A stretch of 64,000 nt of DNA from assembly GCA_008632985.1 (NCBI GenBank), contig QPGO01000012.1, positions 744,001 to 808,000 of the forward strand, read 5' to 3'. The notes beneath the pieces were generated by a model. That model was not told the DNA's origin and did no database searches. It saw nothing but the letters and a program-made list of their open reading frames with translations. This DNA comes from Psammoneis japonica. Lineage: Eukaryota. Made by a program: the position numbers and the translations under genes. Positions 10,470 through 60,814 of the stretch are shown piece by piece. Position 1 is the stretch's first letter. Each line of letters opens with the position of its first letter.

Positions 10470-10654
10470 GTTGTTCTTGCACCAGAAATTGATCCAAACC
10501 CTGTGTTCTGAACTCACAACCCACAACCCCTGTGCACATGGCTTGCCAGGCTTCCCTGCAAGGGTGCCCTGAAACTTGTCATTGTGCACATTCCGCACAG
10601 TCTGGTGCATTGCCAATGCACAAATGTGAAGTTTTTGGGCTTGTCTTGTTGGGA

Positions 10655-11054
10655 CAGTGGTCACCTCTGTTTTGTGGGAAAGAACTGTCAAACAACTCAG
10701 TTTGTGGATGTGCTTCAATGATCACATCTCAACCGCAAAACCCTGTTGTCCAAACAAGCCCTCAGGCTCAGTGCCTTGCCCCCAATTTGCACACCATGAT
10801 TTTGGCTCTGCCACTTGTTTTCTCCAGAAACTTGTGCTCAGTCATTTGACACAGACCAAGTCTGCATTGTTTTGCTCAGATTGGTTTTTTGACAAGGAGA
10901 GCGAGTGAAACAAATTCCTTGCATGTGAAAAAAGGGGCAAGACACTGAGAATTTGTTTGGATGATGGGGTTTGTGGTTGAGATGTGATCATTGAAAGACA
11001 TCCATCAACTGAGTTGTTTGAAAACTCTTTTCCATAAAATGGAGGTGATCACTG
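10655..11054. repeat. About 110-bp imperfect inverted repeat (foldback/MITE relic)
   Basis: 10655..10765 matches the reverse complement of 10945..11054 (shared core TTCAATGATCACATCTCAACC); arms differ at several CA/TG and TA/TG sites. Confidence 0.75.
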
Positions 11055-14900: not shown

Positions 14901-17471
14901 ACAAGCCTCTTAACTTTTTTGCCCTGCTTCTGCTGCTGCTCATCTTGTGCTGGTGTGTGCTGGAGATCATTTCCAGCCACCTCACACATGCTGTGGGGGC
15001 AGGGTTTGCTCTGTTTTTATCTTTCATTTTTTTGTTGCTCTTGCTGCTTGCTGCTCCAATGTGCGCAGAGCCACTTTCTGTTGTTGCTGCTCTTTTGCTG
15101 TTCTTTTGGTGTTTCTGTGAAGCACTGTGCTGGAAGCTCTGCACAAACAAAATTGAAAAGATGATTTTCCAGCAGAGAGGTCATGGAGAGCACCACACTT
15201 GCTCTCATTTGACAGAAGCACCGCATGGCAGCAGAGAGGCACCTTTGGCAAACTCCAACACTTTCATGTGCTTCAAGACCATGGCAGCTGTTGAAACAGC
15301 TCTTTGTGAGGCAGCTCTCAACAGCAACTAGACCACACACCCAAAGTGGTGTTGAGAACACTTTGCAGGGTGCTTCTTGGCCATGGACAACCTCACAATT
15401 TTTGGCTGGCCAGCTGGGGTGGGGCAACAGGCCTGAGCTCTTGCCTGGCTGCTTTGCAGAGCATCTCAGCTGTTTGCTTTTGGCACCCAAAGCAGTCCTG
15501 CAATTTTCCTTTTTGGCATGTTGTTCATCCCCTTCCCTTGCTTCTTCAAGCAGCAGCATGCAAAGCTTTTTGTGAGAGCTCTGGAGCGGGGTGCTGCCCT
15601 GGCTTCTTGCTCTGCCTCCTGCAGCCATCAGCCATCAGCGCTGCAGAGCTGGACACTCTGCCTCTGCTCTCAAACTCCTTTTGTGTGCACCACATTTTGA
15701 TTCTCAAATTGTTCTTTGTCCTTGAGTGCAGCTGCCTTTGGTGTTGGGTGCTTGTGGAGTCATCAGCTCACCCCACTTTAAAACCTGCTTGCTTTTGCCT
15801 GCTGACTCGCTCTCTTGCTTGATGGAGTCAAGTCAATCAAAATCCACTGCCCACACTGCTGTGACCTTGCAGGGCACGATGGAGTGACAGGGAAATTGGC
15901 CAAACCAGCCCATTCTGACAAGATTGACACTCAACTGCATGACCCATTGCTTCATTGATGAATGTGAAGTGCAAATCCTCACACAAGCCGCTGCAGACAA
16001 AGTGTGTGGTCCTTCAAAAAAATTCTCAAAGTCAGAAGAAAGCACAGCACCCATGCCAGCAGAGGCACCAAAAAGAGACCAAATTGAAGGTTCAGTTGAT
16101 GTTCTTGCAATCCCATCACAAAAGCAAAATGCAGCAACGATGCTGTGCCAATCAAAAGAAAAACATCTGGTCACTGCCTTTGGGTGCAAATGAACAATGC
16201 ATGCTCAGTTCATCAATTGCAACATTGTGAACATGTGGCTGCAGTGGATGCACTCATCTGTCATCCTGTCCTCCACACCACCACTGAAAGCATGTGCAAA
16301 TGCATCATCCTTGCCAGAAGCCTGCTCTCCTCCTTCTCCTTCTTTGGCCACTTCACTTCTTTTTTGTTTTCCAGTCACATGTGCAGTTGGTCTAGATTCT
16401 GGATGCAACAACGTGCTGTGTGGACCACATTTGTGTGTTGTCTCACCTGCACCTTTGTTGCAGTTGGTGGCAGTGGGCTTCAAAAAACTCTTCTTCGACT
16501 CTGCTCCACTTTTCACTGTTGTGGTTGACTGGCTCACTCTGTTGCTCTGTGTCCAAAGGCTCGACTCCACGGGATCTTTTTGTTTTGATCTCTTGCTTTT
16601 TTTTGAAACAGCGCGAGGCTCACTTCATCAAGCAAGCAACACAGCTGTTGCGCGCACCAACAGTTTTGCACTCAAGGTGAATGCTGCAGCTGAGTGCACA
16701 CATTTCCAGCACATGCTGACAATGATGACAGCACCCGCTCTGGGGGCAACACAGGATCGTGCTTGTTGTTCCCGGTGCACACCGACAATGCTGTCAGCAG
16801 TGCCGCTCTTCCCAGAAATGGCAGAGATTGCAGTTTGCCACAAAAATGCTCCAAGCCCTTGTTTTTCTGCACAGTGGTGGCCAGCGATTGGCGCAAAACA
16901 AAAAAGAAGTGACAAGCAAAGGAGGAGTGTGGCAAGAGCTGAGCAGCTTTGGAGCGCGATGCTGGCCCACCAGTTTTCCAGAACTGCTGACCCTAGAAAA
17001 CACTTAAGTGCCGGCAGTCTCCAGCAGTCAGTGAAAATTAGACCATTTCCATGCCTGGTTGTGCGTGGCATTTTTGGCGGGAAAACCAATCACATCTCCT
17101 CGTTTCTGAATGATTTGATTTCAGTCTGAAAGTCGTTGAGCTCAAGCGCTTATTGAGCAACAGAATGACTTATTCATATTGCCTTCCACTTGTATTAACA
17201 ATTTACATTGACGTAAGTTGTTAAATAAAAATTGATATATATATATAATAAATTGTGGCTACAGAATAAAAGAAGGTTTCCTATTTATCTTTAAAATTAG
17301 AATTCTTTGACAAGGCCCAACAATGTTTCATTCTTTCGAATTTTTGCTGAAGCCGCGTTTTCAAGTTGCACTTTCTCATTCGTTCTTCGCAAGCGATAAA
17401 AGGAGTTCTTTTTTGGACAACAACAACAGGTACTATTATTGTCTTGCAAACCTCGCTTTTGATTCGTAGCC

Positions 17472-21353: not shown

Positions 21354-22277
21354 CTACACCACCGAAAAGATTGGTGCACCGTTGTCCATTTGACACTGGA
21401 CAATGACCGCCAGAGCTTCAAAAGCCCACTTGAATTTGTTGAATCTGTCATCTCTACTGGTCGGTTCCGTGCGTAAAAGTATTTCCAAGAATGCCAAAGA
21501 ACTTCATTCGTCCGTTGAATGTCTCGTGTCGCAGACGCGCGCGGCTCTTAAAGTTTGCGAGCACTTCGTCGTCAAGGTGATTGGGAAGTGACAACATGCG
21601 TTGTTCATTGGGAACGTCGGAAGTGCATCCTCTGTCGGCAACAACAAGCTTTCCCTCTGGGATCTCAGCTATTTTCTCTCTGAATGCAACCATGTCATGT
21701 TTGCCTCCTCGATGCGGCCCATTGAGCCAGCAGCACTGTGCACGCCATGTGGACAGACCGACATCACACTTCAAGGCCGCCGTGTCAATCTTGTGAGAAC
21801 AGTCTCACTTGTCTTGATTCAGGGTGGGATGTTTTCGCTCCCACATTAGGAAATCTGATCTGTCAACTGTGCACGCAAAAATGACATCACCATCAAGTGC
21901 CGGATCGAGTGCAATTTTTTTGCCCTTCAATGCCGCAATCTTTCTCACCCATTTGCACACATGCTCACCTTGTGCGTGGACTCTGCAAACTTTGAAGGCC
22001 TTTGCAAATACAGCTGCATTCTTGGGGCAAACAAACAGAAAACAGTGAGCCATGAAGAATCGTCTCAAGCCCTTTGCAGTGTTTTCTTTTGCGCTGACAG
22101 GTTCGCCTCTTGGATTCGTGTGGTTTGAAGATCATGCCACATGTTTGCAAGATCGACAGCGCTCGAGCCATAATTTTTGCGGAACTCCAAATTCCAGTGA
22201 TCTTCAGACCATCTGCAATTGTCCATAGAAAGAAATCTCATTCCCAGCTCAAGAATGTCGTTTGGGGATGGCATCAT
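21354..22277 (-). pseudogene. DDE_Tnp_4-like (PIF/Harbinger/IS5-like) transposase, degraded
   Basis: Motifs TVDRSDF, SHK..AALKCDV, WLNGPHRGGKHD, VADRGC (from ADRGY), RARLRHETFNGRMKFF, VQCQMDNG; internal stops and frameshifts. Confidence 0.85.
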
Positions 22278-22469
22278 CTTTGTCACCAGAGCATTTTGTG
22301 AGAGACGAGAGGCGAGAAAAACAACACCTTCCATTGACATCTGCGAGCGCAATGGTGGAGCACATGATGTGCATTTCCATTGCATTGCAGAAAAAGCCCT
22401 AAAGTGATCATTTGTTGACCGCAACCGTGGAGCAACAACATCTAAAACAATCGCCAGTCAAATCAGGTG

Positions 22470-22729
22470 TGGCTGGCAACGAGCATTGTGTGATGCGCTC
22501 CAACGGACAGTCTCGGACTTCAGTGCAACCGCAAAATTTTCGAAGTTGACAACCAACACAACCTGAACAAGTCAGAGCGATCCTTCAACAGTGGTCCATT
22601 TTCTTCAGTGTCAGCATGGCTGGCAACGAGCATTGCACCATGCGCTCCAACGGAAAGTCTCGGATTTTAGCGCAACAGCGAAATTTTCGAAGTTGACAAC
22701 CAACACGACCAGAACAGTCAGAGCGATCC
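22470..22729 (+). repeat. Two direct copies of a ~113-bp unit between divergent TE ORFs
   Basis: TGGCTGGCAACGAGCATTG...AAATTTTCGAAGTTGACAACCAACAC...GTCAGAGCGATCC at 22470..22583 and 22617..22729. Confidence 0.85.
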
Positions 22730-22739
22730 CACAATTTCA

Positions 22740-23204
22740 ATGGCGCTCCATTTTCACATGGATCAGAGGAAGAAACGGCGGGCCATGGAGACGACGATAA
22801 AGGGAGAAGAAGTCAAACTCAAAACTGCCAGCACCCTAGGAAAAAGGGGGCACACAAAAGCATGGATGAAAATTTGTGATGATCACCCCCCCAAGAGCTG
22901 TCGTGTTGTCGTCCTTGATTCCGACACTGGAGGTGAGTGTGAAACGCTTGTTTGCCGGGGATCAGTGATTGGGACAGATGATCGTCCGCCCACTTCATTC
23001 GTGCAAGCGGCTTTCCTTGAACACCCCGATCTTCAGGAAAAAATTGAGAGCGTGTGCAAGGCCATTGCTCAGTTGGAGCTTCAAGATGAAGACATGGAAG
23101 AAATGCAGGTCATTTTCCAGCAGATGTTGGTGAAGGAGTGTCAGAAGCAAGCTGCAAAGAACAAAAAGATGATTCGCTCTGTCTCAAGTTTCCGACGTTC
23201 TTGA
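22740..23204 (+). pseudogene. Transposon accessory ORF A, unknown function
   Basis: 154-aa protein-like ORF (PPTSFVQAAFLEHPDLQEKIE...) inside the TIRs; contains no Tyr. Confidence 0.5.
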
Positions 23205-23323
23205 GTGCCACCCACCGCAACCTCGGCACAGTCCTCATGGCGGCATCGGCTGCACTGTAGTGCCGACACCACCAGCCATCAATGCACTGCTAGAAATTGA
23301 TGTGCACGTCAGATGCTGCCATT

Positions 23324-24325
23324 TTACTTTTTCTTTTTACTCATCCTTTGTTCATCCGCATCCTCCATCCCGCGTTTGCATGCCTTCTTCACCTTCTTCT
23401 TCTCCTCTTCCTTCCGTTTTTCCTCAGCCTTGGCCCATCGTATCTGGCATTGTTTGATTTTCTTTAATCTCTTTGATTCAAGGAAATCAATGAACTTTTT
23501 GCGCCGGACCTCTTGGCAGATGCGGCGTCTAAAAACTGCCAGCTCAAACTGTTGATGCTCAAGGCATGAAGCATGCAACTGTGCGCCTGACATCCTCAAA
23601 TGCAGGCCATTCACCACATCCTCTCGGAGGAGCGGTTTTGCTGCAGACAAGTCAAAAACTGGCTCCCCACGATGGTTGTGTGTCTGCCTTGGATGCACCA
23701 GCAGATCACGCCTGAGTGCTTCCATTTCAAAGACTGATCTGTTTACATTGCATGACACTTGGGCCCTGTGGTCGATTGATTGCTCCTTGAACTGACAGAA
23801 TGGAACTTTGCGGAATTCTTCAATGTTTTTGTGTGCCATTTCCCATGCTTCTTTGGGAGTCATTTCATCGTCCGTCAGTGGTGGGATGCCGCTTTCCAAG
23901 TCTCCACGAACAATGATCCTTGCTTCACTGTTGGTCCAATCAATCCTTGGTTGCTTGACGGGTTCCAGTCCTGGGTGGGACTCCGAACATCAAATAAACG
24001 GCCAAGTTTGTGGTGCAATTGTGCCTCTTGCCACTCGACATTTTTGCAAGTGCGGCTGCCCCACGCAATTCTTAAGACATTGTAGAATCGCGCTGCAACA
24101 AAAAATGTCAAAAGTTGTTGGACGGATCGCTCAACAAGTGCACCACAAAATGACACAAAATTTCACAAAAGTCTCGTACAATTCTACGTGCGCGACATGC
24201 GGTGCGATCCAAAAAACTGTCGATGTCACAGTTCAGCAGTGCGAGGTCCCACCTAGAGCTGGAACGCGTCGCTTGGGCTTCTTGGGCTTCTTGCTCGGCG
24301 TGGGTGATGCCGACGGATTCATCAT
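23324..24325 (-). pseudogene. Transposon accessory ORF B (second-ORF type), interrupted by a MITE
   Basis: Removing 23957..24270 plus one TSD gives the continuous frame MMNPSASPTPSKKPKKPKQPRIDWTNSEAR...; two repeated (W/F)xxSxAxxxL/VxxD modules. Confidence 0.7.
23957..24270 (-). mobile_element. MITE (GACG...CGTC termini, 4-bp TSD GCTT), partly TpA-converted copy
   Basis: TIR GACGGGTTCCAGTCCTGGGTGGGAC and its inverted partner; GCTT at 23953..23956 and 24271..24274; reverse-complement homolog of 33262..33651 with an internal deletion. Confidence 0.9.
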
Positions 24326-24760
24326 CTTGCCGTTTCAATTTTTTGCGTTGAGCCGAGGATTCATGAGCGAAAAAGGCACAAAATCTCAAATCCATTGTTG
24401 TGTTCATCCTGAATAAAAATGTGTCGTTTTAATCCCGTCAAATCTATCGCAAAAAATGCATGGCGATGCATTGAGTTTACACGTCGCATCCAACATTGTA
24501 GAAGATTCTCGGTGTCCCACGGTGAGATTGCACGCGACTCTACACTCGCAGGGCCCTGCAGTAAATTCACAACTCATTGCCATTGCGAAATGTCCCGTAG
24601 AATTCGCAACTTCACTTTTAAAGATTTGCCCACCTTGCTTTGACACCACCATTGGCGAGACACACTTTGCACCAAGCGCTTCCATGATGAATGCCGGGTT
24701 TGGTCTTGGGCACATCGAGTGCTTGTTCAACTCTAACATGCTGCAGGATCATGTGTTGAC

Positions 24761-25414
24761 ATGCCTTGTGTCAAAAGTTTGGTGAGTTTTGAGGCTGCAC
24801 ACCGGTGCTTCGCAGGGAGCACACATGTGGCATGGAATCGCCTCGCATGCGCTCCACCCCATCTCCATGACGCCATGAATGGAGAAGGCAAATTAAAAAT
24901 AAAGCGTCGCAAAGATGTTCTTTCCCTCTGTCAAAAGATGCATGGCCTGGCACGGAACTTTGACGACAACACTGAAGAGTTTGGGGGACTAATTGACAAT
25001 GGACTGCCATGCCACCGCCCCGAGCATTTCTGCCATTTCTTGTTGATGCGGGCTGCTGATGGTGCCATGATGTTTGAAGATTGGATCCCAAACTCGATCA
25101 TCAGTGCTGAGGTGCGGGTTGCTTGTTTGACACTCATGTTGGATGAGCTGAACATTGAGTGCAATGACTGCTCGGATCCCCTTTTGTTTGAAGATTTTCC
25201 TCTTCCGTCAGTGGTGTTGATTGCATGTGGGCCTCGCGATTTGGATGCAAGCAGCCCTAGAATTCTCTCTGCCCTGCCCTGTTTTGACTGGGACTTTGGG
25301 ACGAGTTTTGATGGATTGATTTTCAATCTTGACACCCACGAAGTTTTTCATGGTGTTGTTTCGGGCAAGTTGTTTTTCGTCAACGAAAAAAGCATTGCAC
25401 TTCGCATGTTCTGA
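24761..25414 (+). pseudogene. Transposon cargo ORF C, unknown function
   Basis: 217-aa protein-like ORF within the TIRs; no Tyr, Cys/His-enriched. Confidence 0.4.
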
Positions 25415-25866
25415 AAGGGATTGTGGTGATGATGTGGATCAATGGTGTCTCAATTGTCTCAATGGAGCCAGGTGGGAAACTGTTGATGATGTTGGTCAGT
25501 GTCAGAGCTGTGTCGATGCCAGCAGTGGTGCTAGCAGCATTGTGCTGTGCCAGTGGTGTTGCTGACACCAGCAGCATTGTTGCCAAAGCCGGCATGAGAG
25601 CAACTTGCATTGCCAATTGCCGACACGCAGTGGCACCTGTCCGACACGATCCACATCTGTTCAAAACCAACGGACCATGTGCTTGCTGTCAATCATGATG
25701 CAACACAATTTTCCATCAATGCACATCATGTGTTTCCCAAATTTTAGCATGCTTGTTTTAGCGGGAATGGGATTGGCTGTCTCAACTGACAACTGGCGAA
25801 AATTTCAACTGCCGGAGCAACTCCGAGACTCCACAGCTGCTTTGCCAACATCTCACAATTCTCCAA

Positions 25867-27513
25867 ATGTCTGAACCTGCACTTGAGGATTGGGAGACAA
25901 AGCAATTGCTCCAAGAAGCAGAGAAGCTAAACACACCAAGAGACCAGATCTTGCACAGTCACCTGGCTTTTCGAAGTGCCGTTCTCGGCGGTGACAGAAG
26001 ACGTTTGTCCCAGAAGAAGTGGCCCCAATTCAAGTGTTCTACAATTGCTGCACATTGCAGCACGCTCTTGAAGCACAGTGTTGAGCCACCACCGTGCACT
26101 CTTTGCCTTTGCCAGGAATCCACTTCCTTAGATGCAGCACCCACCGAAGCACCAGCAGAGGATGCGGCACCGGCAGAGCATGCGGCACCAGCAGAAGACA
26201 CGGCACCGGCAGAGCATGCTGCAGCCGAAGCACCACCAAAGGAAGAACTCGAGGACGATGCTGAAGACGACAACCTCCTTCAAGGCATGAGCCGCCTTTT
26301 CAGCGCATCTGCCCCACCCCGTGGCCAGAATCCCCAACCGCCAGCCGCAGGAAGCCAACTGCCAGCCGTGGGAAGCCAACCGCCAGCCTTGGGAAGCCAA
26401 CCGCCAGCCTTGGGAAGCCCTCCATTGTCCATGGCATCCAACAGTGACACAAACAGTCCTCCTCCTGTGGGGGATCCGTCTCGTGGTGGCCGTGTCCATT
26501 TTGCTCCATCAACAAATGCCGCGAACCAGCACGGCCCACCCGCATTCTCTCCGGCAAGAGCCTGCAACTCTCCGGCAACGGCCTACAACCCCCCGGCAGC
26601 AGCCTGCAATGGCATGAGCCTTGCGCCAAATGCTGGCCATCTGCCAGCGAGTGGACACTCCTGTTCTGGGAACACATTGGAATCTTCGTTGGAATCCAGT
26701 GAGCAACACGTTTTGCTGTCGGGAATGTGGCAACACAACACACTCCCGAACTGGTTGTGTGAGAGCATGGGCGGCAGTGCCCACTCACCTTTTGTCATCA
26801 AGGTCAACCCTTCTGATGCAGAAAATCATCGAGAGTTTGCCATTCGCAAGCTCCGCCCCTTCTGTCACGGCACCTGCATGCGCTCAGGGTGTCACGTCCA
26901 GCACCCATGTGCATTTGAAGAAGACTGCAAATCTTTTCAAGCAAAACCTTTGGACAGCATCAACAACCTTCATTGCTGTGGAAATGTCCTTCCAGCATGT
27001 GAGGGGAGGAGCATCCTGGTCACAAGTGTGCTTCAGAGTGCATCAGTGGCTTGTCCAACCTGTCTTTACGATGGTCCCGCAGAGACCGCCGTTCAGCAAA
27101 TTGTCCGGCAAGCTGAGCCAATGACGATGAGTGAGACTCGCTGCAAACACACTCTTCTTCTTTTCCCTTTGAATTCAGAGCGATTGGATAATCGCACTCT
27201 TTCCACTGGACATGATTGCGTGATCGACCGCAAGGTGGTCCCTTTCGAAGAGAATGGCAACCCGCTTCCTGTCCAAGGGTGCTGTCGTCACCTGGACCAT
27301 TGCCGAAAAGGGGGGGATGGACATTGGGGGAGCTTGTCTCCCACAAAATGTTCAACGCCAAGTCCCACAAAATGCTCAACCGCCCAATCAATTCCGACGC
27401 CCCTTCTTTCTTTAGTTTCTCGGGAGCTTTTTTTCAACATCTTGAATTTTTCGATTTTATGTCTTACATCTATCCTCATCAATAACACACACACATGTTC
27501 ATATGATGTATAA
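25867..27513 (+). pseudogene. Transposon accessory ORF D with internal minisatellites
   Basis: 548-aa ORF from MSEPALEDWETKQLLQE; 18-bp (APAEDA/APAEHA) repeats at ~26137..26235, 21-bp (GSQPPAL) repeats at ~26338..26420, 24-bp duplication at ~27340..27385. Confidence 0.55.
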
Positions 27514-33261: not shown

Positions 33262-33651
33262 GACGCGTTCCAGGTCTAGGTGGGACCTCGTACTGCTGAA
33301 CTGTGACATCGATAGTTTTTTGAATCACGTCGTATGTCGCGCACGTAGATTTCTACGTGATTTTTTCGATATTTTGTGTCATTTTACGGTACACTTATTG
33401 AGCGATCCGTCCAACAACTTTTGACATTTTTTGTTACAGCGCGATTCTATAATGTCTTAAGAATCGCGTAGGGCAGGCGCATTTGCAAAAACGTCGAGTG
33501 GCAAGAGGCATAATTGTACCACAAACTTGGCAGTTTATTTGATGTTGAAGATAAATGTATCCATTAATTAAATTCTCGTACTACGGAGCTCGCACGTAGA
33601 ATTCTACGGGCCCAATGTCACACGGAGTCCCACCTAGGACTGGAACCCGTC
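33262..33651 (+). mobile_element. MITE (GACG...CGTC termini, 4-bp TSD AAAT), essentially unconverted copy
   Basis: TIR GACGCGTTCCAGGTCTAGGTGGGAC versus right reverse complement GACGGGTTCCAGTCCTAGGTGGGAC; AAAT at 33258..33261 and 33652..33655; TpA-rich. Confidence 0.9.
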
Positions 33652-34151
33652 AAATGGACCTTGTTGATTTTCCCAGAGACCTGGATTGGCGAGGGAACGA
33701 TGGCCGTGGAAGACAGGACCTCAGAGTCAGACTGCCTCGTTGAAGCCAGCTCATCCGAAAGAGCTTCAAGGCACTTGTGCATGTCACGCAGTTCATCATC
33801 GCCACCACCCATGTCCGTGGAGTGCTGAGGCCATTGGGAGACGCAACTGAGCATCATTCCATTGCCCACAACAGACAGCTGAATGCCAGAAAGGTCCGTG
33901 GTGCAAACACCAGATGGAGCCACAACAAACAACATGACGTGATTGGTCTTGGTGACAGAATCCTTGCAAGTGGCTTGCAAGACCATGGGCTTGAAGCTCT
34001 TCTCCAACCCCCTCCTTGCCCACCACCACGCCCCTCCACCACAAGAGCAACACCAGCTCCATTCATGATGCCAGTGGCATCATTGTTGTTGGCAGGAGTT
34101 GGAGCCGACATGTTCATCTGACGAGTGCTGTCCAGGCCGCTGGAGAACAGC

Positions 34152-34427
34152 TGACAGGATTTGAACAGGATTTGGATGCGCGCGAAGTGTCGCGCGCTGT
34201 TTAGTTTACCGCGCACAGTTTTGTGTGCTTTAGTTCCGCGCGTTCACGCGCGATGTAGTTTGCTTTCGAGCCACAAGGCTCACAAGAATGATGACAGCAG
34301 CCCGATCACACCGACTTGCCCGTCTTTCGGCTCCTGCAACGGTCTCTGAGCGGAGACTCATCTGCCATTTAGACAGCAGTGAGGAGTCATTGTTTGAATT
34401 CTTGCCATTTGCCTTCAATTTCTGTCA
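34152..34427 (+). repeat. 5' LTR
   Basis: TGACAGG...TTCTGTCA; 14 transition differences from the 3' LTR. Confidence 0.95.
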
Positions 34428-34440
34428 GATTAACAGTCTT
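34428..34440 (+). promoter_or_regulatory. Putative primer-binding site complementary to the tRNA-Asn(GUU) anticodon arm
   Basis: GATTAACAGTC directly after the LTR is the reverse complement of GA-CTGTTAA-TC; no TGG (CCA-complementary) start. Confidence 0.6.
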
Positions 34441-35366
34441 GCTCATTGTCAACCCATTGAGCAACCGCCATCGTCGTCGTTGATTTACCAACGACGCCAT
34501 TTCAATTCTACGTGGACCTCCGTATATATTCTACATACATCGGCAAGTCTACGCGCATTCAATACCAGGGCATCGGCAGGAAGTTAACGTCACCGTCAAG
34601 TCTCCTTACCGCTGGATATCTGGATTGATTATACTACCTTTGATCGCTGAAGACATACATTCAACGGTCATATCCAAGTCTATCCTTGATCCTCATCCCT
34701 TGATATACCTATTCATCGGTTAACGGTCAAGAACCCTACATATTCAAGGATCTTCGTCGCTGAAGACATATATATATATACATATCTTCACGGCCAAGAA
34801 CCTGTACCCACTCTTCGGACTGCGGTTTTGCTGCCACTCTACAAGCACACCGAGTCCATTGTACCTGATCTACCCCGGACTGCTGGTGCTCTACAGTTCT
34901 ACTAGGTCCACGAGGATGACTGTGAGAGCAAGCAGCCGTGATTACAACCTGCGTTGGGGCGAGGGTGCTTTCCCGCGTTTGTTCGTTCGTCCACAGCGCC
35001 CAACGCCTGCGTCAACTGGCCAGCCTGATCGGGAAATCCAACCGACATAAAATAAGAACGGTTCGGGGGTCTTGTCCACCTCCAGTCAGCTTGCCTGCAG
35101 GGGTTTACAACCCGCCGCTCCGCTCGCAAGCAACCCAAAGCGCCGCTGGCTGCGGGTTCGGACGTGCCGGCACAACTCTGCAGACCGGACAGGAAGTTTA
35201 GCACTTGACAACGAACGGGATAACAAAGCCCGGCGACTTCTGATTTTAAGATGGTTCAAGATTTCAAGTCAAGTCCATTTCAAGTCAAGCCTGTTCTCAC
35301 CCAAGTTTCGAGTCTGCCTTCGCTTCCCAACCCGAATTGATTGTCCTGACACCACTTTTATCTACC

Positions 35367-38300
35367 ATGGTTCTCACTCGTCAGCAACAAACCGATGGTT
35401 TCGAGCACGTTGTTGGAACCGTGCTTGCCCAAGGTGCTGGGAGTCCTCTTCGTTTGGCTTTGGCCCAAGACGGCACGGACTCGCATCAGGAACTGTTCAC
35501 GTTCACACCGTCCCAAATCGACTCGCTTGAGTGCGACAACGGCACTGGTGCAATCCCTTTGCCCCGTGGTTGTAAGAACATGTTAGCAGCACTAGTTAGC
35601 CTGTGCATTGTCAAAGCACACAAGGGTCTTGACGTTGCCAACGACTCCTCTTTGTTCGCGCATGACGAGTTCCTTGCCCACCGCCTCAGCCCGGACTGCA
35701 TGTCCTCTGTGTCCATCGGCAGCTCACCCCTTGCACCTCCACATGTCACCAACCCGACCAAGGCATGCGACCCGGTGCGAGACTTCAAGCGAGGCATCAA
35801 GCGTGATCCCACCGCTTTCACGGCTCTCAAATCCGACAAGCAGTGGCACACTTGGCACACCTCACTTGTGGCACAAGCCCGTGCCCAAGACGTCGAGTGC
35901 ATTCTAGACTCGTCGTACAAACCGACCAGCCCCGAAGACAAACTGCTCTTTGCTGAACAGCAAAAGTGCATGTTCGCCGTCTTCGAACGCATCCTTCTCA
36001 CCGACAAGGGCAAGGCTCTCATTCGCGAAAATGTGGGGTCTTCTGACGCACAGACCGTCTGCCGCTCCTTGTCTGAGTGCGCGCTTGCCTCCACCCGTGC
36101 ATCTGTCGAGTCCTCCACCCTGCTCACGTACCTCACCACCGCACGTCTTGGTGATGGCACTTGGAAAGGCCCGACCCACGGGTTCATCCTTCATTGGCAA
36201 GATCAGTTGCGCAAGTGCGAGGCGCTCATCCCTGCCAGTGACCACTTCTCTGAAGGACAGAAGCGCGTCATGCTCGAGAATGCCGTGCACCCTGTCGAGG
36301 AACTCCGTGCTGTCAAGAACCAAGCTGATCAGCACCGCACGCAGAGTGGCAAGAGCCTCACATGCGATCAATGCTGTGGCTTGCTCCTCTCCGCGGCAGC
36401 TCAGTGCGACAGCACGTTTCAACCCAAGACGACACCCAGAGCTCCCCGACGCGCCACATGCGCACATGACGTCTGCTCCGAGGAACCGTCCGACGATGTG
36501 TTCTACGACATTGACAGCGACGTTGACGTCCTTCAAGCCAATGCTGCCTGCACCCGCGGTCCCAGCCTCACCGGTGTCCAATGGAGACGTCTCCCTCCCG
36601 ACCACCAACGGCTCTGGGATTCGTTGCCCGATTCCTCCAAGGCGATCATCCTTGAGCATTCTGGTCCGCCTCCCTGCAACCCGCGAGCCAGTGACTGCCA
36701 TGAGTCTGTTACGGCCAACCTTCACGACCAACACCTTGGGAGTGACGGTGATGTCAACTTGTCCAACACGACTCCTGCTGACTGTGGTGACCCCGCCACA
36801 CATGTGGACGCCACTTCGGACAATCCCATCCTGGCGCACCTCACCAAGCGCAAGCCACTGCCACCCGGTGATCTGCAACGTCTGTTGTCTCCTAACCAAG
36901 CCCCCAATGCCAGTCGACCGGGGCCATCCGCCGCTTCCTCTACCCCGCCAGCTTCTGCAGATAACACAGAACTTAACGGCCGCACTTGCCGCCGCGTCAA
37001 CAACCACAATGTCATTTGCTCTGCCTCTGCTCATCGCTCCACACGCACTGGCGCTCTAGTCGATCGTGGGGCCAACGGCGGCATTGCTGGCGACGACGTT
37101 CGCGTCATCGCACGCACCTCTCGCCAAGTCGACGTTCAGGGCATTGACGATCATCAATTGGTGGACATCCCCATTGTCACCGCTGGTGCCGTCATTGAGA
37201 CCCAGCGTGGTCCCGTCATCGCCATCCTCCATCAGCGCGCATGCACGGGAAAGGGCAAGACCATCCATTCCTGCGGCCAGCTCGAATGGCACAAACAGGA
37301 TGTCAACGATCGCTCTGTCAAGGTGCCCAACGGCTTGCAACGCATTGCCACTCCTGATGGCTGTGTCATCCCCATTGACATCAAGGCTGGCCTGCCTTGT
37401 GTTGCCATGCGACCTTACACTGACGCCGAATGGACACCCTGCCCCATGTCATCCTCACCGGTGATGACACATGGGACCCTTCCGTCCTCGATCACTCTGT
37501 CACTGACGACGACCAGTGGTACGACGCGATCTCTGACCTACAGGACGATCCCACTGCCAACCCATTTGACGAATGCGGCAACTACCGTCACCGTGTCGTT
37601 GTCAACGAGACCATCTTGTCCGCTTCCTTGTCTGCCGATCACGCGTCCGCCCTCGATGATCACCTCATTCCGAACGACGACGTGTTCTACGAGTGTCATC
37701 TGCATGCGATTGACCCCCAGGGCGATGACGTTCCACCTCCGGAGCGCACTGTACAGCCCAAGGACCCCCCCTTCGAGTCTCTTCGGCCTTGCTTTGGCTT
37801 CCCACCTGCCGATGCGGTCCGTCGTACTTTTGACTGCACCACGCAGTGCGCCCGCATGCCCGCCGGTACACACCTTCGCAAGGCCTGCAAATCACCCAAC
37901 CCCGCCCTTAATGTGCACCGCCGCAACGAGCCTGTCGCCACTGACACCGTTTGTGCCGACACCCCGGCCGTCGACTCTGGTTGCACCAGCGCCCAACTGT
38001 TTGTTGGCACCGAGTCTACCGTCACTGACGTCTGCGGCACTAAGACGGACAAAGAGTTTGTCAACACACTCGAGGATCAGATCCGTGAACGTGGTGCCCC
38101 ATCCAGCGACCGTGCTCAAGTTGAGATCAGCAACAAAGTGCTCGGGATCCTACGCGCCCTCTTCATCTCCAGCTGGCAAAGTGAGCCTCACCAGCAACAC
38201 CAAAACTTTGCCGAACGTCGACACCAGACCGTGAAGCGCATGGCGAACACTGTCATGGACCGTTTTGGTTCGCCCGCCCACACATGGCTGCTGGCGCTCA

Positions 38301-41080
38301 TGTGCGTGTGCTTCATCCTCAACCACACAGCGTCCCCACGTCTCCACTGGCGCACACCCCTCGAGACTCTCACTGGATCCACCCCGGACATCAGCCCATT
38401 GCTTCGCTTTCACTGGTGGGAACCAGTGTGCTTCCACCTCGATGATTCCGATTGGCCGTCCGAATCCCGTGAGTTGCGTGGACGCTTCGTTGGCATTGCT
38501 GAGCACGTCGGCCACCAGATGACCTTCAAGATCCTATCTGACGAGACTCAGAAGATCCTCTGCCGGTCCAACGTTCGCTCCGCTGCCCCCGATCCTGCCG
38601 TTCAAAACCTGCGTCTTGATCCTCCTGATGGGGAGCCACCTGAACCCATCATCAAATCTCGCCATGACGACAACCCCATCGATTCTCCTGATGGGGAGAT
38701 CAGGACACCCAAGATGCCAGTTTTCGATCCGCAAGACATCATTGGACGTACCTTCCTCATGCAGCCACAAGAGGACGGACAACGCCACAGAGCTCGCATC
38801 GTCAAGGCCGTCGAAGACCACGAATGGAAAGTGAACGGCAATCCCGAGCTCACTAAGTTCGTCTGCTCTGTCAACAATGACGAATGCGAGGAAGTCCTTG
38901 CCCACAATGACATCATGAATCACATTGAGCAAGAAGACGAAGACACCACCATTTGGAAATTTCGACGCATCGTGTCACACGAAGGACCTCTGAAGCCTCA
39001 CGACCCAACCTGGAAAGGCTCAAGCTACAACATCATGCTTGAATGGGAAAGTGGGGAGATCACGTCCGAGCCTCTTGCCATCATCGCCAAGGACGACCCC
39101 GTCACCTGTGCCATCTATGCACGAGAGAACGGACTCCTAGACACGGATGGCTGGAAGCGGTTCCGCACTATCGCGAGGCGCCAAAAGAAGCTATTTCGCA
39201 TGGCCAGCCAAGCCAAGCTTCGCTCCTTCCGCACTGCACCTCGCTACAAGTGCGGATACGAAGTTCCCCGGAACTACAAACACGCCATGTCACTGGACGA
39301 ACGCAACGGCAACCGCAAGTGGGGAGACACAACTAATCTCGAGATGGACCAACTCGACGAATACGAAGTCTTCCATGACTGCGGGCCCTTCAAGTCTTCC
39401 ACTCCTCCTGCGGGACACAAGAAGATCCGAGTGCACCTGGTGTTCGACGTGAAACACGACGGTCGCCACAAGGCACGACTCGTGGCCGACGGGCACCTCA
39501 CGGACGTACCTGTCGACAGTGTCTACTCGGGAGTAGTCTCCCTCCGTGGCCTTCGGCTGATGATTTTCCTGGCTGAACTCAACGAGCTGGAGACATGGGC
39601 CACCGACATTGGCAATGCCCACCTTGAAGCCACCACCAAGGAGAAGCTTTACATTGCAGCTGGACCCGAATTTGGCAAACTCGAAGGACACATCCTTGTC
39701 ATCCACAAGGCACTGTATGGACTGCGCAGCTCCGGTCTCCGCTGGCACGAGCGCTTCGCCGACTGCCTGCGAGCTGAAGGCTTCTTCCCCTGCCGCGCCG
39801 AACCCGACATTTGGATGCGCAGGAACGGCGACCACTGTGAATGCATTGGCGTTTATGTGGATGACCTCGCCATTGCCATGAAAGACCCTCAATCTTTCAT
39901 CGACACTCTCACGGAAAAGTGCAAGTTCAAGCTCAAGGGTGCAGGACCCATTGAGTTCCATCTGGGTTGCGACTTTTCCCGGGACCCCGACGGAACCTTG
40001 TGCCTGTCTCCGCGCAAGTACATCGAGCGCATGGTCGACAGCTACGCCCGATTGTTTGGGGAGAAACCTGCCACCAACACCCTGTCACCTCTAGAGAAGG
40101 GTGACCACCCCGAACTGGACACTTCCGAACTGCTGGGACCCGATGGCATTCACAAGTTCCAGTCTCTTGTTGGTTCACTCCAATGGGCAGTGTCCCTTGG
40201 TCGAATTGACATTACCACGGCTGTCATGTCACTCTCTAGCTTCCGAGCTGCACCCCGTCAAGGCCACTTGGATCGTGCCAAACGCGTCTGTGGGCACCTC
40301 TCCAAGATGCGACACGGTGCTCTCCGCGTTCGTGCGGAAGAGCCCGACCATTCGGATCTCCCTGCTCCGGCCTATGAATGGATGCATTCCGTGTGTGGTG
40401 AAGCAGAAGAGATGGTCCCGAAGGACGCTCCACCGCCCCTTGGCAAGTTCGTCACTACCACCCACTGCGTCGATGCAAACTTGTGCCATTGCATGCTCAC
40501 CGGACGCTCTGTCATGGGAATGCTCCACTTCCTCAACAAATTCCCGGCTGATTGGTTCTCCAAGAAACAAGCCACCGTGGAGACTGCAACCTGCGGATCT
40601 GAATTTGTTGCCGCAAGGAATTGTGTTGAGCAGATTGTCGACCTGCGCATCACCCTGCGCCACCTTGGCGTCCCGATCCGTAATGTCAGTTACATGTTCG
40701 GTGACAACAAGTCGGTTGTAGACAGTGCCACCATCCCGCACTCCAAGTTACACAAGCGACACACCGCACTGTCGTTCCACCGTGTGCGTGAGGCAATTGC
40801 CTCTGGTTACCTTGAGTTCCACTTCATCGAAGGCTCCCGCAACCCTGCTGACATTCTCAGCAAGCATTGGGGTTGCTCCCAAATCTGGGACCTTCTCCGC
40901 CCCCTCATGTTCTGGAACTTCATCCCATCCGAAGTCGAATCTGTTTCTGTAGCTCCTCAAGCAAACTGGGGAGTGACAGGATTTGAACAGGATTTGGATG
41001 CGCGCGAAGTGTCGCGCGCTGTTTGGTTTGCCGTGCACAGTTTTGTGTGCTTTAGTTCCGCGCGTTCACGCGCGATGTAG
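35367..41080 (+). pseudogene. Copia gag-pol polyprotein, Tyr-eroded, with one -1 frameshift at ~37433
   Basis: Gag FKRGIKRDP; protease LVDRGANGG; integrase VATDTV...SDRAQVE...QNFAERR; RT HKARLVADG, KALYGLRSSG, GVYVDD; RNase H VDAN..ETATCGSEF..GDNKSV..NPADILSK. Confidence 0.92.
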
Positions 41081-41249
41081 TTTGCTTTCGAGCCACAAGG
41101 CTCACAAGAATAATGACAGTAGCCCGATTGTGCCGACTTGCCCATCTTTCGGCTCCTGCAACGGTCTCTGAGCGGAGACTCATCTGCCATTTAGACAGCA
41201 GCAAGGAGTTGTTGTTTGAATTCTTGCCATTTGCCTTCAATTTCTGTCA
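40974..41249 (+). repeat. 3' LTR
   Basis: Direct repeat of 34152..34427, same length, followed by the TSD. Confidence 0.95.
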
Positions 41250-42604
41250 ACAGCTGCTCGTCGTCGGAATCATCGGCACCTGGTGAATGCACGGCGAGAA
41301 CAACAACAGCGCGCGCAGCGCGCGGTCAAAATGAAGGTGCAAGCATCAGCAAAGATGTGACGTCACTTCCAATTGTCACACATTCATGCAGGAACACAAT
41401 CAACAATCGACACTCACCGTCAGGGTTCTCGTTCATCGTGCGACGAAGATTGAACCTGGTTTCGTCTTTGAGCCTGTGCAAGCCAGTGCGGAATCTGTCC
41501 AGTGGACAGCGCATGAACTCTGCGTGCATCTGCTGGATCTCTTTTGGCATCGCGCCAGGGCTGATCTTGCCCTCCATCAACATCTCCTTCAGGACTTTAC
41601 AGGCGGCAGATCCCTTGTGCCATTGTGGATGAACAAGGGGGGCAGCGGCCTCCGTGTCAAGAACTGATTTGGTTCGTTGATTGAGTTTGGGCATGTTGTT
41701 TTTTTTGTTTTCTCTTTTTTATGACAGGATGGATGGTGCAAAGTCAAGAGGCGTCAAGATCCACACTCGCATTGATGGTCAGCAACGAGAACCCCATTTT
41801 TGAATGGGTCACGGCCAACCCACCTCACCACTTTCCGCGGGATGCTGCTCTTTTCAAATCTGAAAACCCCAACCGTCAAAATGAGATTTGAGAGAATCCC
41901 AACCGCCAAAAGTGAGAAAGGGCCTCTTGACATTGTGGGGGGCCCTGGATTCCCTCAAGTCCACCCTAAAAACGTTCCGAGACCGCACTGAAATCGTTCG
42001 CAAATCACACAAAATGATTTCCGGCTCCAGAACGATGACTTTGGGCCGTCTCAAATGAGGAATGATTGGCTTGAATGCAGCCACAGCTCATGATGACAAT
42101 GGCACTAACAGCAAACTTTGGCGCGCAGTTTCATTCTGTCTTTTCAGCAGCATGTTCACGCGTGCTCTTCATCCATGAAAAGTCGTTTTCATTTTGATTT
42201 GCAGACAAACGCGTTTCTTTGAAGCCCTGCCATTGATGGATCATGGGATTGAAATGCTGTGTCACATGTTGCAGCTCTGCTGCTGTGTCAGTTGAGCCAA
42301 TGGCATGCCTTGGAGCAGTCAGTGTGCTGGTTCCGGTTGAGATGAGGACACCCAAACTTGCCTTTTGCGTTCGTTTTGAAGTCACCATTCTGAAACCGCA
42401 CCCGAATCGCATTTTTTTCGCACTTTCGTCACACACCAGGGAATCTCACGAAAGGCCTCTTCAAATGAGAACCCCAACTGCACCAAGATGACAAAACACA
42501 ACTCTCAACAAACAACTGCTCTAACAGCAGAGACCAGTGGCACATGTGGCACAATTGACAAAAGTTTAAAATGACACTTGGGTGTGCACTGGTGGTTGCC
42601 AATC

Positions 42605-43490
42605 ATGCGTCTGCCCAAAGAGGCACTGGAGTGCTTGGCACAGACAACAATTCAGAAGCCAAAAGGGTCACCCACAGCATGGAAATGACGGCTCGCTTCA
42701 TGCTTCTGTACCCCACAAGAAGTGGCATCTGAGTTGCGGGGGCTTCTGGAAGACGACGGAAAAATGCCGTGAGGATTTTTGCCCATTCACCCACTGTGCA
42801 CCCTTTGCTTTCTCAAATTGCATGAATCTGAGACAGTCGTTGCCGGAATCTGTAACAAAATTCATGAAGACACGCTGAGAAAATGGGTTTGGGTCGGCAC
42901 TCAACTTGTTGGACAGTTGGATTTGGTGCGTGTCATTCCAGACAAGCTCCCACACATGAGACAAGTGAACTGGCACCTTTTTTAGATTCACTGGGAAGAC
43001 CGCTTCATTGGCGACAATGGCAGCACTTGTTTGGTGACACTCAACAGCACTGATTTCAGAATCTACGAGCCGTCGCCATTCAATCCAATGTGGCTCTCCC
43101 ACAAATTCCACGGTGCTGGGCTGTGGTGTGAAATTGGAACATGCACTCAAACAGGGTGGATTGTTTGGGTCAATGGACCATGCCCAGCTGGGTTGCCGGA
43201 TCTGAGCATTGCTCGCGAATGGATCATTGAAGAGCTTTAAGACGGCAAGATGCACCTGGCTGCCAGCACAGCTTGACTCCATCCGGCCTAAGAAATGCAG
43301 ACAAGGCCATGAAAACAATGGCAAGGGCAAGGCATGAGGCTGTGAATGGATGGTTCAAGCATTTCGGAACACTTCAGAAAAGACACCGCCACGCGAAGGA
43401 AACACACTGCCATGTGTTTCATGCCGTGGCCAACATCACACAGTTGGCCCTCATGATGGGCTGCTCACCATTTGATGTCGAGCATTTGAC
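42605..43490 (+). pseudogene. Second DDE_Tnp_4-like (PIF/Harbinger-like) transposase, degraded
   Basis: FLKLHESE..TLRKWVW; IHWEDRF..VTLNSTDFRIYEP..WLSHKFHGAGLWCEIG..WVNGPCPAG..D; RARHEAVNGWFKHF..RHRH..VFHAVANITQ; TGA stops consistent with CGA decay; probable intron at ~42926..42984. Confidence 0.85.
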
Positions 43491-43499
43491 GGTTGAAAC

Positions 43500-45290
43500 A
43501 ACAGCAAAAAGTGTTTTTTTGCCAAAGTGTTGTTGCCATGAACGTTTCTCAATCTCATCGTCGCTGCAACGCTCTCGCGAGCGAGCACAAGGAAAGAGAG
43601 CCGAGAACCGACCCTGTTGCGTGCCATGTGGCGGGAAATTTGAAAATGCACCGATGACATGATTGTTGTGCCTGCTCATTGCCCCAAGCATCATCATGCT
43701 GCAATGTTGACATCATCATCTGCCTGGCAGGCTTGTCTGCGATTCCTCATGCTGGGTGTGTCCAGCATGAGGGGCCTGGCTCGATTGTTTTGGGCTTTTG
43801 TGCTTTTGGTTGTTGTTCTTGAGACGCGACGTGATCGAGCCAGCAAGAGAATCTTGAAATTTGCCAACACGAGTGGACAAGCAAATGCTTTTGGAAATGA
43901 AATCAGACAACATTGGTGGTGTCGTTGAAGGCTTTTCACATCGAGGCTGTGATTTGGGTGTTTGGCATCTGCGGCAATGCATGTGCTGCTGCTGGTGGCA
44001 TCTGTCTGCACCCCCAATGCACAGGACGCACATGGCACCTGGCGCCACGTGTCATCAAGTTGTGCCACAGCAGCACAATTGTTTTTTCCAACAGCTCCCT
44101 GATCATCTGTCAGGTTGTCTCAAGGGTTTGATGCACAGGTGGTGGGTTCTTTGCTTCAGCAGTCATTGTCGTTGTTTCACAATTTTGTGGCTAAAGAAGG
44201 TTGCCTGCTCTTTGCTCCATTGCAGGCTTTGCTCACCTTGGGGACAAGGTTAGACTGGTGGACTTGCTCATTGCTTTGTCACAAAGTGCGTGCCATGTGG
44301 TGCTGGCACAACACATGTGAGTCTTCTCATTCTTGCATGTGTCTCATGTGGACAGCCCAGAAAGCTGTTCACCTGATGCGACCAAATGTGGTGTGCAGAG
44401 AGCACAAGCATGGGGCTGTGTGACAATGTGAAGCAGAGCTTTCTAGAGCAAACTGGGCTTGAAAATGGCCTCTCTGCACATGTGCCCAGCACACATGTCA
44501 GCCACCGCCACATTTTGTTCATCCTCTCTCTGCCACCAGGCCACCATGTGCAAAGCAGCAAAACACACATCTTTGGATGATCCTGCCATCAAGTTGGGTC
44601 ATCTGAAAAAAAGCATGGGGTTTGACAAACAGTGCCTGCCCATCGCATCAGCCAGCCAAAGAGCCCAGTTTCATGCACTGGCTCCTTGTGCACATGGCAG
44701 AGCAGTGCTGTTCAGCCATGCCCAGGAAGAAGTGTGGCTCATTTTGAGAGGGTGTGGCTCTCAAATTGGGTGATTGCAGAGAAGTGTCTGGAGGAGAGCC
44801 TGTCAATGCATGTCATCTGCCCCCAACAGCAGCACAGCAAAGCAAGCATGAGGATGGTGGCATGACTTGTGGCCAATGTTGCATGATGTAAAATGCAAAT
44901 GATCAGGGTTTTGACGTTGCGACACAAAATTTGAATGAGCAGGATTTTGACACAGTTCCCCACTCACACAAAAAGGCTCCATTTTTGCAGACCATTTCCT
45001 CTTCAGATCTCACACAACAGCTTTGGCCAATGGCTCATGACATCACTCTGATTGCTGCAACCAAAATGCTCAACAGATGTTTCTGCCAGAAGTTGGGCCT
45101 GGTGAGATGCATGCTCCGAACATGTTGCACAAGAGAGAGCCAGGCTTGAGGCTCTTTTTCTTGACCAGCAGCTCCTGCAAGACATGACCGTGTTGCTAGA
45201 ATTCCATCCTTTTTTGGATACGCTGTTGCTTCTTGAGGACTGGAGGGCAGTGTGCATTGACATCAAGTTGAGGCAAAGTCCATCACATCA
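43500..45290. mobile_element. TpA/CpG-depleted repeat relic
   Basis: TG/CA-rich composition; only spurious ORFs; sharp return to normal composition near 45290. Confidence 0.55.
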
Positions 45291-45593
45291 GCTAAAAACG
45301 AAACGCGTTCAGTCGTGGCTCGTCTGTATGCGTCTAATTTTATTCACGAGTGACTGAAAAGCAAGATATAACTGTCGGTAACCGATTGTGTCACGCCGTG
45401 ACGTTGAAACACTTTCGAAAAATCAAAAATCACCAAAGCAAGGTCAATGATGTTCTTTCATCTTGTCCCGCTTGCGTTGGCCTTCCCCCATCCAGGAATG
45501 CCGACGGCTGACTTGACACCTACTCTCTAGACTATTACTTATTACACGACGACACCACTGGCAGTTTCATAGTTTGATCTTTCTATTGGAACC

Positions 45594-60780: not shown

Positions 60781-60814
60781 TTTCAACGTTTGACAATGGA
60801 ACTTGGGCACATGT

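Follow-up and report, generated by a model that had tools for sequence, protein, structure and literature searches.

TpA-directed transitions as a probable source of LTR divergence in a copia element of the diatom Psammoneis japonica

The two long terminal repeats (LTRs) of a retrotransposon are identical at integration. How could those of one Ty1/copia element in the diatom Psammoneis japonica have come to differ only by transitions within pyrimidine-purine (YpR) dinucleotide steps? The element lies in a stretch of 64,000 nucleotides (assembly GCA_008632985.1, contig QPGO01000012.1, positions 744,001 to 808,000 of the forward strand), which is called the window here and is numbered from its first letter. 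The results below make it probable that the DNA of the element was hit by TpA-directed A:T>G:C transitions within regional blocks, and that its two LTRs were hit independently after reverse transcription.

Differences between the two LTRs

The direct-repeat search of the window gave an LTR pair with 95% identity, which was delimited by this search together with base-by-base comparison.

34152..34427, + strand: 5' LTR, 276 nt, TG...CA ends
40974..41249, + strand: 3' LTR, 276 nt, TG...CA ends
34147..34151, no strand: 5' target-site duplication ACAGC, five bases identical to those at 41250-41254
41250..41254, no strand: 3' target-site duplication ACAGC, a perfect 5-bp match to 34147-34151

The TG...CA ends and the perfect ACAGC duplication indicate that these are the two LTRs of one insertion. 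Comparing them base by base, we found 14 differences in 276 bases, all of which are transitions in YpR steps; they occupy 10 dinucleotide sites, and there are no indels. This exactly matches a preliminary description of the same DNA, whose three classes of sites were recovered as well, and the observed pattern is confirmed as real. The sites are listed below by LTR position, with the 5' LTR base before the slash and the 3' LTR base after it.

52 A/G, 57 A/G, 139 G/A, 147 C/T: four sites with TA against TG or CA, TA being kept twice in each LTR
156-159 CACA/TGTG, 229-230 TG/CA, 237-238 CA/TG: four reciprocal CA/TG dinucleotides
61 C/T, 171 G/A: two sites with CG against TG or CA

About half of the LTR bases (51%) lie in YpR steps. 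In 200,000 random placements, the probability that all 14 differences fall in such steps is 6.5e-5, or 1.1e-3 if they are counted as 10 independent events. Five adjacent pairs of differences were seen, and the probability of four or more is 0.0024. Outside YpR steps, none of the 134 LTR bases differs.

If TA is assumed as the ancestor, positions 139 and 229-230 of the 5' LTR have become TG, and 147, 156-159 (CACA) and 237-238 have become CA. Under the same assumption, the 3' LTR carries TG at 52, 57, 156-159 (TGTG) and 237-238, and CA at 229-230; with CG ancestors, it also shows CG>TG at 61 and CG>CA at 171. At the TA sites, the 5' LTR then has 2 A>G and 4 T>C changes and the 3' LTR has 5 A>G and 1 T>C, so 12 of the 14 differences are A>G or T>C, the other 2 are CpG decay and transversions are absent. 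Both kinds of change are found in each LTR, which bears out the earlier proposal that the LTRs were hit independently and on both strands.

Direction of change in the element and its family

The polarity of these changes was examined in homologous proteins, in other family copies and in a likelihood model of the LTR pair. Family variation was taken from the contigs of one public run (X1), with 14,217 pieces on the element in 141 Mb of contigs; site-level data cover 40 of 511 variable places, and the family depth given below is a summed depth, not a copy number. The internal layout of the element is as follows.

34428..35366, + strand: leader from the LTR to the polyprotein ATG, with a TA-keeping patch at 34552-34951
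35367..37431, + strand: gag-protease part of the polyprotein, in the frame of the open reading frame (ORF) 35337-38234; the homologue consensus begins at the M of MVLTR
37431..37432, + strand: frameshift, where 76% of the family depth has one extra G
37430..41080, + strand: ORF of 1216 codons for integrase, reverse transcriptase (RT) and RNase H, with RVT_2 at residues 659-871 (about 39404-40042)
40959..40973, + strand: purine-rich tract adjoining the 3' LTR, a putative polypurine tract

The element is a Ty1/copia LTR retrotransposon of 7,098 bp (34152-41249) from a highly repeated family, nested in an older mutated block. Two long overlapping ORFs lie between the LTRs, and the second contains RVT_2, the copia-type RT domain (E = 1.7e-28). 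No Pfam integrase model passed in the Pfam scan of this mutated copy; the ORFs are colinear with polyproteins of about 1900 aa, with the integrase part aligned upstream of RT. Of the 3,551 relatives of the polyprotein, the best 120 share 52-74% identity with it, 64 of these have more than 1,800 residues, and many of the 120 are on contigs of about 7 kb. The Atlas clusters nearest to the element RT are most frequent in Bacillariophyta. The missing G at 37431 splits the polyprotein into the overlapping ORFs 35337-38234 and 37430-41080, open for 965 and 1216 codons, and ORF1 continues for 800 nt out of frame past the frameshift because stops are scarce. The polyprotein frame itself lacks a stop upstream of the 3' LTR and runs 107 nt into it (40974-41080).

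Of all amino acids, only tyrosine has TA in every one of its codons. We aligned 30 full-length homologous copia polyproteins with both ORFs and used the columns conserved in at least 80% of them, where the element agrees at 700 and differs at 94. Conserved Tyr is changed in 29 of 42 columns (18 Cys as TGY, 6 His as CAY, 3 Phe, 1 Trp and 1 Arg), against 65 of 752 for the other conserved residues (Fisher 1.5e-19). Arg is kept in 61 of 63 columns and never became Cys or His, and Cys and His together are kept in 36 of 37. No Tyr was gained at conserved columns, and no stop codons were created. At a threshold of 60%, there are 54 Tyr columns; 17 of them still have Tyr, and the others have Cys (23), His (7), Phe (5), Arg (1) or Trp (1), which means that 56% of the interior Tyr codons (30 of 54) were lost to Cys or His; in the gag-protease part, the conserved Tyr columns read 7 Cys and 1 Arg, with 1 Tyr kept. 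The same shift is seen in composition: Tyr, Cys and His make up 1.5%, 2.8% and 4.7% of the element, and 3.8%, 0.9% and 3.5% of 64 homologues. Among the Tyr codons, there is no clear preference for the base before or after TA. As a control of the method, a host GTPase was compared with 40 orthologues and had kept all 13 of its conserved Tyr residues.

The family spectrum comprises 439 transitions and 70 transversions at 509 variable places. Linked CA/TG double variants occur along the element, at least at 35001/2, 35506/7, 35679/80, 36459/60 and 36967/8. For example, 36459/60 is TGC in this copy and CAC in 42% of the family depth, and the outgroups have Tyr (24), Phe (4) and Leu (2) there; beside it, at 36457, the TA intermediate ATA is present in 38% of the depth. 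At 35679/80, this copy has CAC and 90% of the depth TGC (outgroups Phe 20, Tyr 10), while 36967/8 is ACA in this copy and ATG in 27% of the depth (outgroups Ile 7, Leu 2, Val 2, gaps 19). Arg was never the outgroup state at the reciprocal CA/TG codons examined. Genuine CpG decay is seen at 36675, with TGC in this copy, CGC in 99% of the depth and Arg/Lys in the outgroups. Within the LTR, site 34307 (the first base of CACA/TGTG) is T in 35% of the depth and has no companion at 34308 among the places listed, and one other family copy reads TGTG, followed by CG at 34321-2 (the LTR 171 site).

The likelihood model covers the 71 YpR steps of the LTR, each descending from TA, CG, CA or TG. In the maximum-likelihood fit, TA is lost with 0.64 per LTR and CG with 0.05, and neither is gained. 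The log-likelihood of TA decay is -120.2, compared with -127.2 for CpG decay plus a gain of TA resembling repeat-induced point mutation (RIP), despite the extra free parameter of the latter. In the LTR pair, 3 steps of the TA class are intact, 4 are single hits and 4 are reciprocal double hits, while 19 CpG are intact in both LTRs; the CpG model fits poorly because these 19 stand beside four double and two single hits. The TA loss of 0.64 agrees with the 56% loss of interior Tyr codons. A direction from TA to TG/CA is well supported for the element, and we infer the same direction for the LTR sites. The opposite polarity, with CG ancestors at the reciprocal sites and TG/CA ancestors at the TA sites, had been named beforehand as what would overturn the idea, and every polarity test that was run contradicts it.

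TA-depleted blocks in the window

The observed/expected ratio (O/E) of TA in the whole window is 0.40, which is a mixture of TA-free blocks and normal DNA: it ranges from 0.00 to 0.84 among 1-kb windows. The blocks, none of which has a strand, are listed here.

33636..34151: left part of the older TA-free block around the element, no TA in 516 nt
41250..45300: right-hand part of this older block, 19 TA in 4 kb
41101..45300: segmentation interval of 4.2 kb, including the last ~150 nt of the 3' LTR; 22 TA, TA O/E 0.08, CG O/E 0.51
10401..17100: largest saturated block, 18 TA and 57 CG in 6.7 kb; O/E of TA 0.04, CG 0.14, CA+TG 1.79
21501..27400: TA-depleted with CpG mostly kept, TA O/E 0.13, CG O/E 0.69; holds the decayed copy of a 285-nt repeat
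1401..3100: TA- and CG-depleted, TA O/E 0.09, CG O/E 0.29
8101..9600: TA- and CG-depleted, TA O/E 0.09, CG O/E 0.36
59201..60800: TA- and CG-depleted, TA O/E 0.03, CG O/E 0.26
62701..63565: almost free of TA and CG, from segmentation

Seven blocks (22,316 nt, with 33636-34151 left out) contain 116 TA in total, and their O/E is 0.08 for TA, 0.39 for CG, 1.70 for CA and 1.71 for TG. The corresponding values are 0.52 (TA), 0.88 (CG) and 1.25 (CA/TG) in the Pfam-positive host ORFs, 0.63 (TA) and 0.99 (CG) in the remaining DNA of the window, and 0.34 (TA) and 0.93 (CG) in the element. GC content is 49% in the blocks and 45% in the rest. The process is thus regional rather than genome-wide, with sharp non-genic blocks emptied of TA and host genes at an ordinary TA level. 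The blocks can be arranged in a series from the element (TA 0.34, CG 0.93) through 21501-27400 and 41101-45300 (TA about 0.1, CG 0.5-0.7) to 10401-17100 (TA 0.04, CG 0.14), an order that fits fast loss of TA followed by slower loss of CpG. A search with 7 copia proteins (tblastn) found no second copia in the blocks of the window. In the five blocks almost free of both TA and CG (1401-3100, 8101-9600, 10401-17100, 59201-60800 and 62701-63565), the O/E of CA+TG is about 1.8. The blocks are full of long ORFs in several frames, as expected where TAA and TAG cannot occur, and a 250-N assembly gap (63566-63815) lies inside a TA-poor stretch.

A dispersed repeat of 285 nt offers a direct comparison of the same sequence at two locations. 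Its two copies have sharp ends and are 90% identical.

33262..33546, + strand: copy outside any block, 18 TA
23986..24270, - strand: copy inside block 21501-27400, 6 TA

At 11 sites, TA in the outside copy is CA or TG in the block copy, and no site shows the reverse (p = 0.001). The block copy has also lost CG at 5 sites, against 1 in the outside copy.

Copia relatives from other hosts were collected by protein-guided scans, which gave 19 loci: one of 2.3 kb from a metagenome and 18 on contigs filed under bacterial metagenome-assembled genomes. In 17 of the 19, the TA O/E is at least 0.59, and the exceptions have 0.47 and 0.32 (the latter a fragment of 871 nt). The same scan of viral contigs gave no loci. 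None of the 19 loci has an LTR pair, and the direct repeat of one of them (L002) is coding sequence with synonymous differences. The 18 contigs (L002-L019) are filed, for example, under Sphingobacteriaceae and Weeksellaceae bins and are probably mis-binned eukaryotic contigs.

Explanations, related systems and consequences

In the explanation that we favour, the target would be the self-complementary step 5'-TA-3', in which a hit on the A of the top strand would give TG and a hit on the A of the bottom strand CA. Ordinary decay of CpG to TpG/CpA would run alongside, with a per-site probability about 1/20 as high. Given that the two LTRs are identical at the start, the four sites with TA against TG/CA would be single hits, and the four reciprocal sites would be TA steps with one hit per LTR, the two hits lying on opposite strands; such reciprocal hits would in turn mean that the LTRs were mutated independently, on both strands and after reverse transcription. 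The term "post-insertion" for this timing, as used in the preliminary description, leans on the textbook identity of LTRs at integration. The hits probably fell on integrated, double-stranded chromosomal DNA in particular domains, since both products occur in both LTRs, the decay of the 285-nt repeat depends on location and the flanks of the insertion are TA-free.

The agent might be a base-editing enzyme activity that targets silenced or foreign DNA, most likely a nucleic-acid adenine deaminase that makes inosine at TpA, as proposed for the alga Bigelowiella natans (Mettrop et al., bioRxiv 10.64898/2026.01.13.699255). Thymine oxidation, to 5-hydroxymethyluracil or 5-formyluracil, is a T>C route that is indistinguishable from adenine deamination by sequence. 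Judging from the CpG loss in the same places, the domains that are targeted may be methylated, silenced ones. As a side effect, Tyr codons and TATA-type motifs would be destroyed and TAA/TAG stops never created, so that dead copies would keep long open frames.

Several observations weigh against this explanation. There is a sense-strand bias in the element, with 23 Tyr>Cys against 7 Tyr>His (p = 0.005) and 13 Cys against 0 His if the 5' part is split off post hoc (p = 0.01); editing of the sense RNA or the non-template strand would be compatible with this bias as well. At the TA sites 36963, 37521, 37540 and 37584, TG is found in 80-96% of the family depth, and at 36129, where this copy has TA, 81% of the depth has CA. 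Shared products of this kind look like inheritance from mutated source copies or a strong site-specific strand preference, and not like hits made separately in every copy; some of the damage in the interior may be older than this insertion or may have arisen on a single-stranded intermediate. The damage within the element is also patchy: the leader patch 34552-34951 keeps 31 TA and is almost unhit (O/E 1.10), alongside 0.06-0.3 in gag, while other family copies carry TG/CA in the leader at 34893, 34901 and 34903 (30-48% of the depth). Moreover, a Tyr column invariant in the 30 homologues (37236) reads CGC (Arg), with two hits in one TA step, for which a single hit that strictly depends on TpA does not account. 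The ancestral LTR states are themselves reconstructed, and a search with the first 35 nt of the LTR gave 0 matches in metagenome, genome and viral contigs. Finally, a foreign or transposable-element origin is assignable to the copia element only and not to the other blocks: none of 67 block ORFs of at least 110 codons reached the Pfam curated cut-off (one had a sub-threshold ImpE match, E 0.007), and the longest (25762-27510) had no homologue in the homologue search.

The sense A>G bias, the TG alleles common to most of the family and the patchiness would all suit a deaminase that edits the genomic RNA and/or the single-stranded cDNA before or during integration, the LTRs diverging after plus-strand strong-stop synthesis and the copies arriving already mutated. 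Under the standard scheme of reverse transcription, one would then expect the 5' LTR to carry A>G alone and the 3' LTR to carry T>C alone, whereas with TA ancestors each LTR has both. In addition, the non-retroelement blocks and the insertion flank are even more depleted of TA than the element, and the TA loss of the 285-nt repeat follows chromosomal location. We consider such editing unlikely.

Slightly less likely still is that the loss of TA to TG/CA is real at the family level but that the two LTRs owe their differences to gene conversion from other copies, or to chimeric assembly or polishing of a very repetitive family. The family has 14,217 contig pieces on the element, the LTR site 34307 is polymorphic in the family, and at some places (e.g. 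35333 and 35548) the base of the window is absent from all contigs of run X1. However, the perfect target duplication shows a single insertion, and all 10 LTR sites are YpR transitions, while the family has 14% transversions (70 of 509) as well as non-YpR transitions. The hit rate per copy in the LTRs also matches that of the interior (0.64 and 0.56).

A sequencing artefact, in which modified TpA (and 5-methylcytosine at CpG) in silenced DNA is miscalled as CA on one strand and TG on the other, would mimic both products, the lack of transversions, the sharp blocks and the unlike LTRs. Yet contigs of an independent public run carry linked dinucleotide alleles (at 35001/2, for instance, 12 contigs have TG against CA) and TA intermediates, and the yield of this run (141 Mb of contigs, with depths of tens) is as expected from accurate reads, which leaves an artefact very improbable. 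Least credible of all is an origin of the reciprocal sites from CpG by deamination of methyl-C on either strand, with RIP-like CpA>TpA change at the TA sites: CpG decay is genuine at LTR sites 61 and 171 and at 36675, and the old blocks are poor in CpG too (O/E 0.39), but TA is depleted rather than enriched, Arg was kept without any Arg>Cys/His, neither Tyr nor stops were gained, and this account costs 7 log-likelihood units on an LTR pair with 19 intact CpG.

Error-prone patch repair by polymerase eta, with its WA motif, was considered separately. It is unlikely, as no A>T or A>C change and no LTR change in an AA context was found.

Among known systems, B. natans provides measured mutation rates. 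In its mutation-accumulation lines, two integrated viral regions mutate at about 1000 times the rate of the rest of the genome. Of the 231 changes in these regions, 230 are A>G or T>C, which all fall on TpA and appear in some lines only (Mettrop et al.). The same preprint describes clusters of TpA-poor, CpA+TpG-rich windows, an enrichment of reverse-transcriptase domains among TpA-poor genes, and an ADAT2-like candidate. The window resembles this system in having A>G/T>C changes on TpA steps (in the LTRs, on the reconstructed ancestor) that give TpG or CpA by strand, in confined regions and probably in chromosome-resident DNA, and 17 of its 64 1-kb windows pass both extreme-5% cut-offs of that study. 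In contrast, the host here is a diatom (a stramenopile) and not a chlorarachniophyte, the targets are an LTR retrotransposon and the other TA-depleted blocks instead of giant-virus and virophage insertions, and the evidence is historical (LTR pair and outgroups) instead of a measured rate. Depletion is deeper here, with a TA O/E of 0.04-0.13 in the blocks against 0.45 in the B. natans region of nucleocytoplasmic large DNA virus (NCLDV) origin. CpG loss and a sense-strand bias are found here, and the parts of the preprint considered report neither for B. natans.

Fungal RIP is likewise a transition-only, dinucleotide-specific and region-confined decay of repeated or mobile chromosomal DNA on both strands. 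Its chemistry is the opposite: RIP is C:G>T:A, mostly CpA>TpA, which raises TA and AT and creates stops, whereas here the change is A:T>G:C, TA is removed (O/E 0.34 in the element and 0.08 in the blocks), GC is raised, no Tyr is gained and ORFs stay open. Methyl-CpG decay also turns a self-complementary YpR step into TpG or CpA on either strand and is seen at 2 LTR sites and in the old blocks, but it explains only 2 of the 10 LTR sites, with per-copy values of 0.05 for CpG and 0.64 for TpA.

Deaminases make transition clusters in retroelement copies of animals too, in the form of ADAR and APOBEC3 editing. To our knowledge, ADAR is known only from metazoans. RNA editing of this type would leave the LTRs identical and produce sense A>G only, unlike the present case, in which the LTRs differ and T>C is found in both of them as well as in 7 Tyr codons turned into His. 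The changes made by APOBEC are G>A/C>T. ADAR favours a U ahead of the A that it edits, a preference cited in the Discussion of bioRxiv 10.64898/2026.01.13.699255.

With regard to diatoms, the element is similar to the CoDi Ty1/copia elements (Maumus et al. 2009, PMC2806351) in its RVT_2 domain, its integrase before RT, its short LTRs and its 5-bp duplication; the text of that paper, in the parts considered, has no passage on transitions, RIP or dinucleotide bias. Mutation accumulation in P. tricornutum points to CG, CC and TG as mutable contexts and to a GC>AT bias, and the term TpA is absent from the parts of that article considered (PMC6604790). Our literature search gave no report of a TpA-directed bias in diatoms.

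So far, TpA-specific A:T>G:C hypermutation of resident foreign DNA is known from one alga, in a preprint of 2026. If diatoms, which are major marine primary producers, provide a second and independent instance, this would show that the phenomenon is not a one-species curiosity, and LTR retrotransposons would join the list of targets. The LTR pair would serve as a built-in clock, in which each LTR lost about two thirds of its TpA steps before other kinds of base changed. Ages from LTR divergence are inflated, the divergence here being 5.1% over all sites and 0% outside YpR steps; the warning of an overestimated age therefore stands for this element, but its extension to the whole genome does not, as the process is confined to blocks. 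Repeat landscapes are distorted, gene finders will call spurious long ORFs in TA-free blocks (67 ORFs here), and decayed elements will be missed by homology searches unless Tyr>Cys/His is allowed.

A wider reading, possible rather than probable, is that diatoms carry a RIP-like defence of opposite chemistry, in which an adenine-directed DNA editor erases the TpA of silenced or invading DNA on both strands before any other substitution could appear. Such an immunity might be old and shared across the stramenopiles, alveolates and Rhizaria (SAR), because the same signature is active in a chlorarachniophyte. If so, it would reshape base composition, fake long ORFs and invalidate both LTR and Kimura dating. 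Diatoms are genetically tractable, so candidate deaminases would be directly testable.

The window is gene-dense, with intron-poor ORFs that have Laminin_G_3, TPR, LRR and bestrophin domains. The gene used as the control (47036-49834, FSH1-RWD-GTPase) has named relatives only in diatoms and one Triparma (Bolidophyceae), for example in Fragilaria crotonensis (69%) and Seminavis robusta (63%), and the top identity over most of the query is 71%. Two pairs of paralogous host genes share about 70% DNA identity, namely 57-1177/3437-4553 (Laminin_G_3) and 50587-51697/56460-57570 (TPR, inverted). A direct-repeat array at 28000-29050, with a spacing of about 177 nt and units 66-80% identical, lies outside the TA-depleted blocks.

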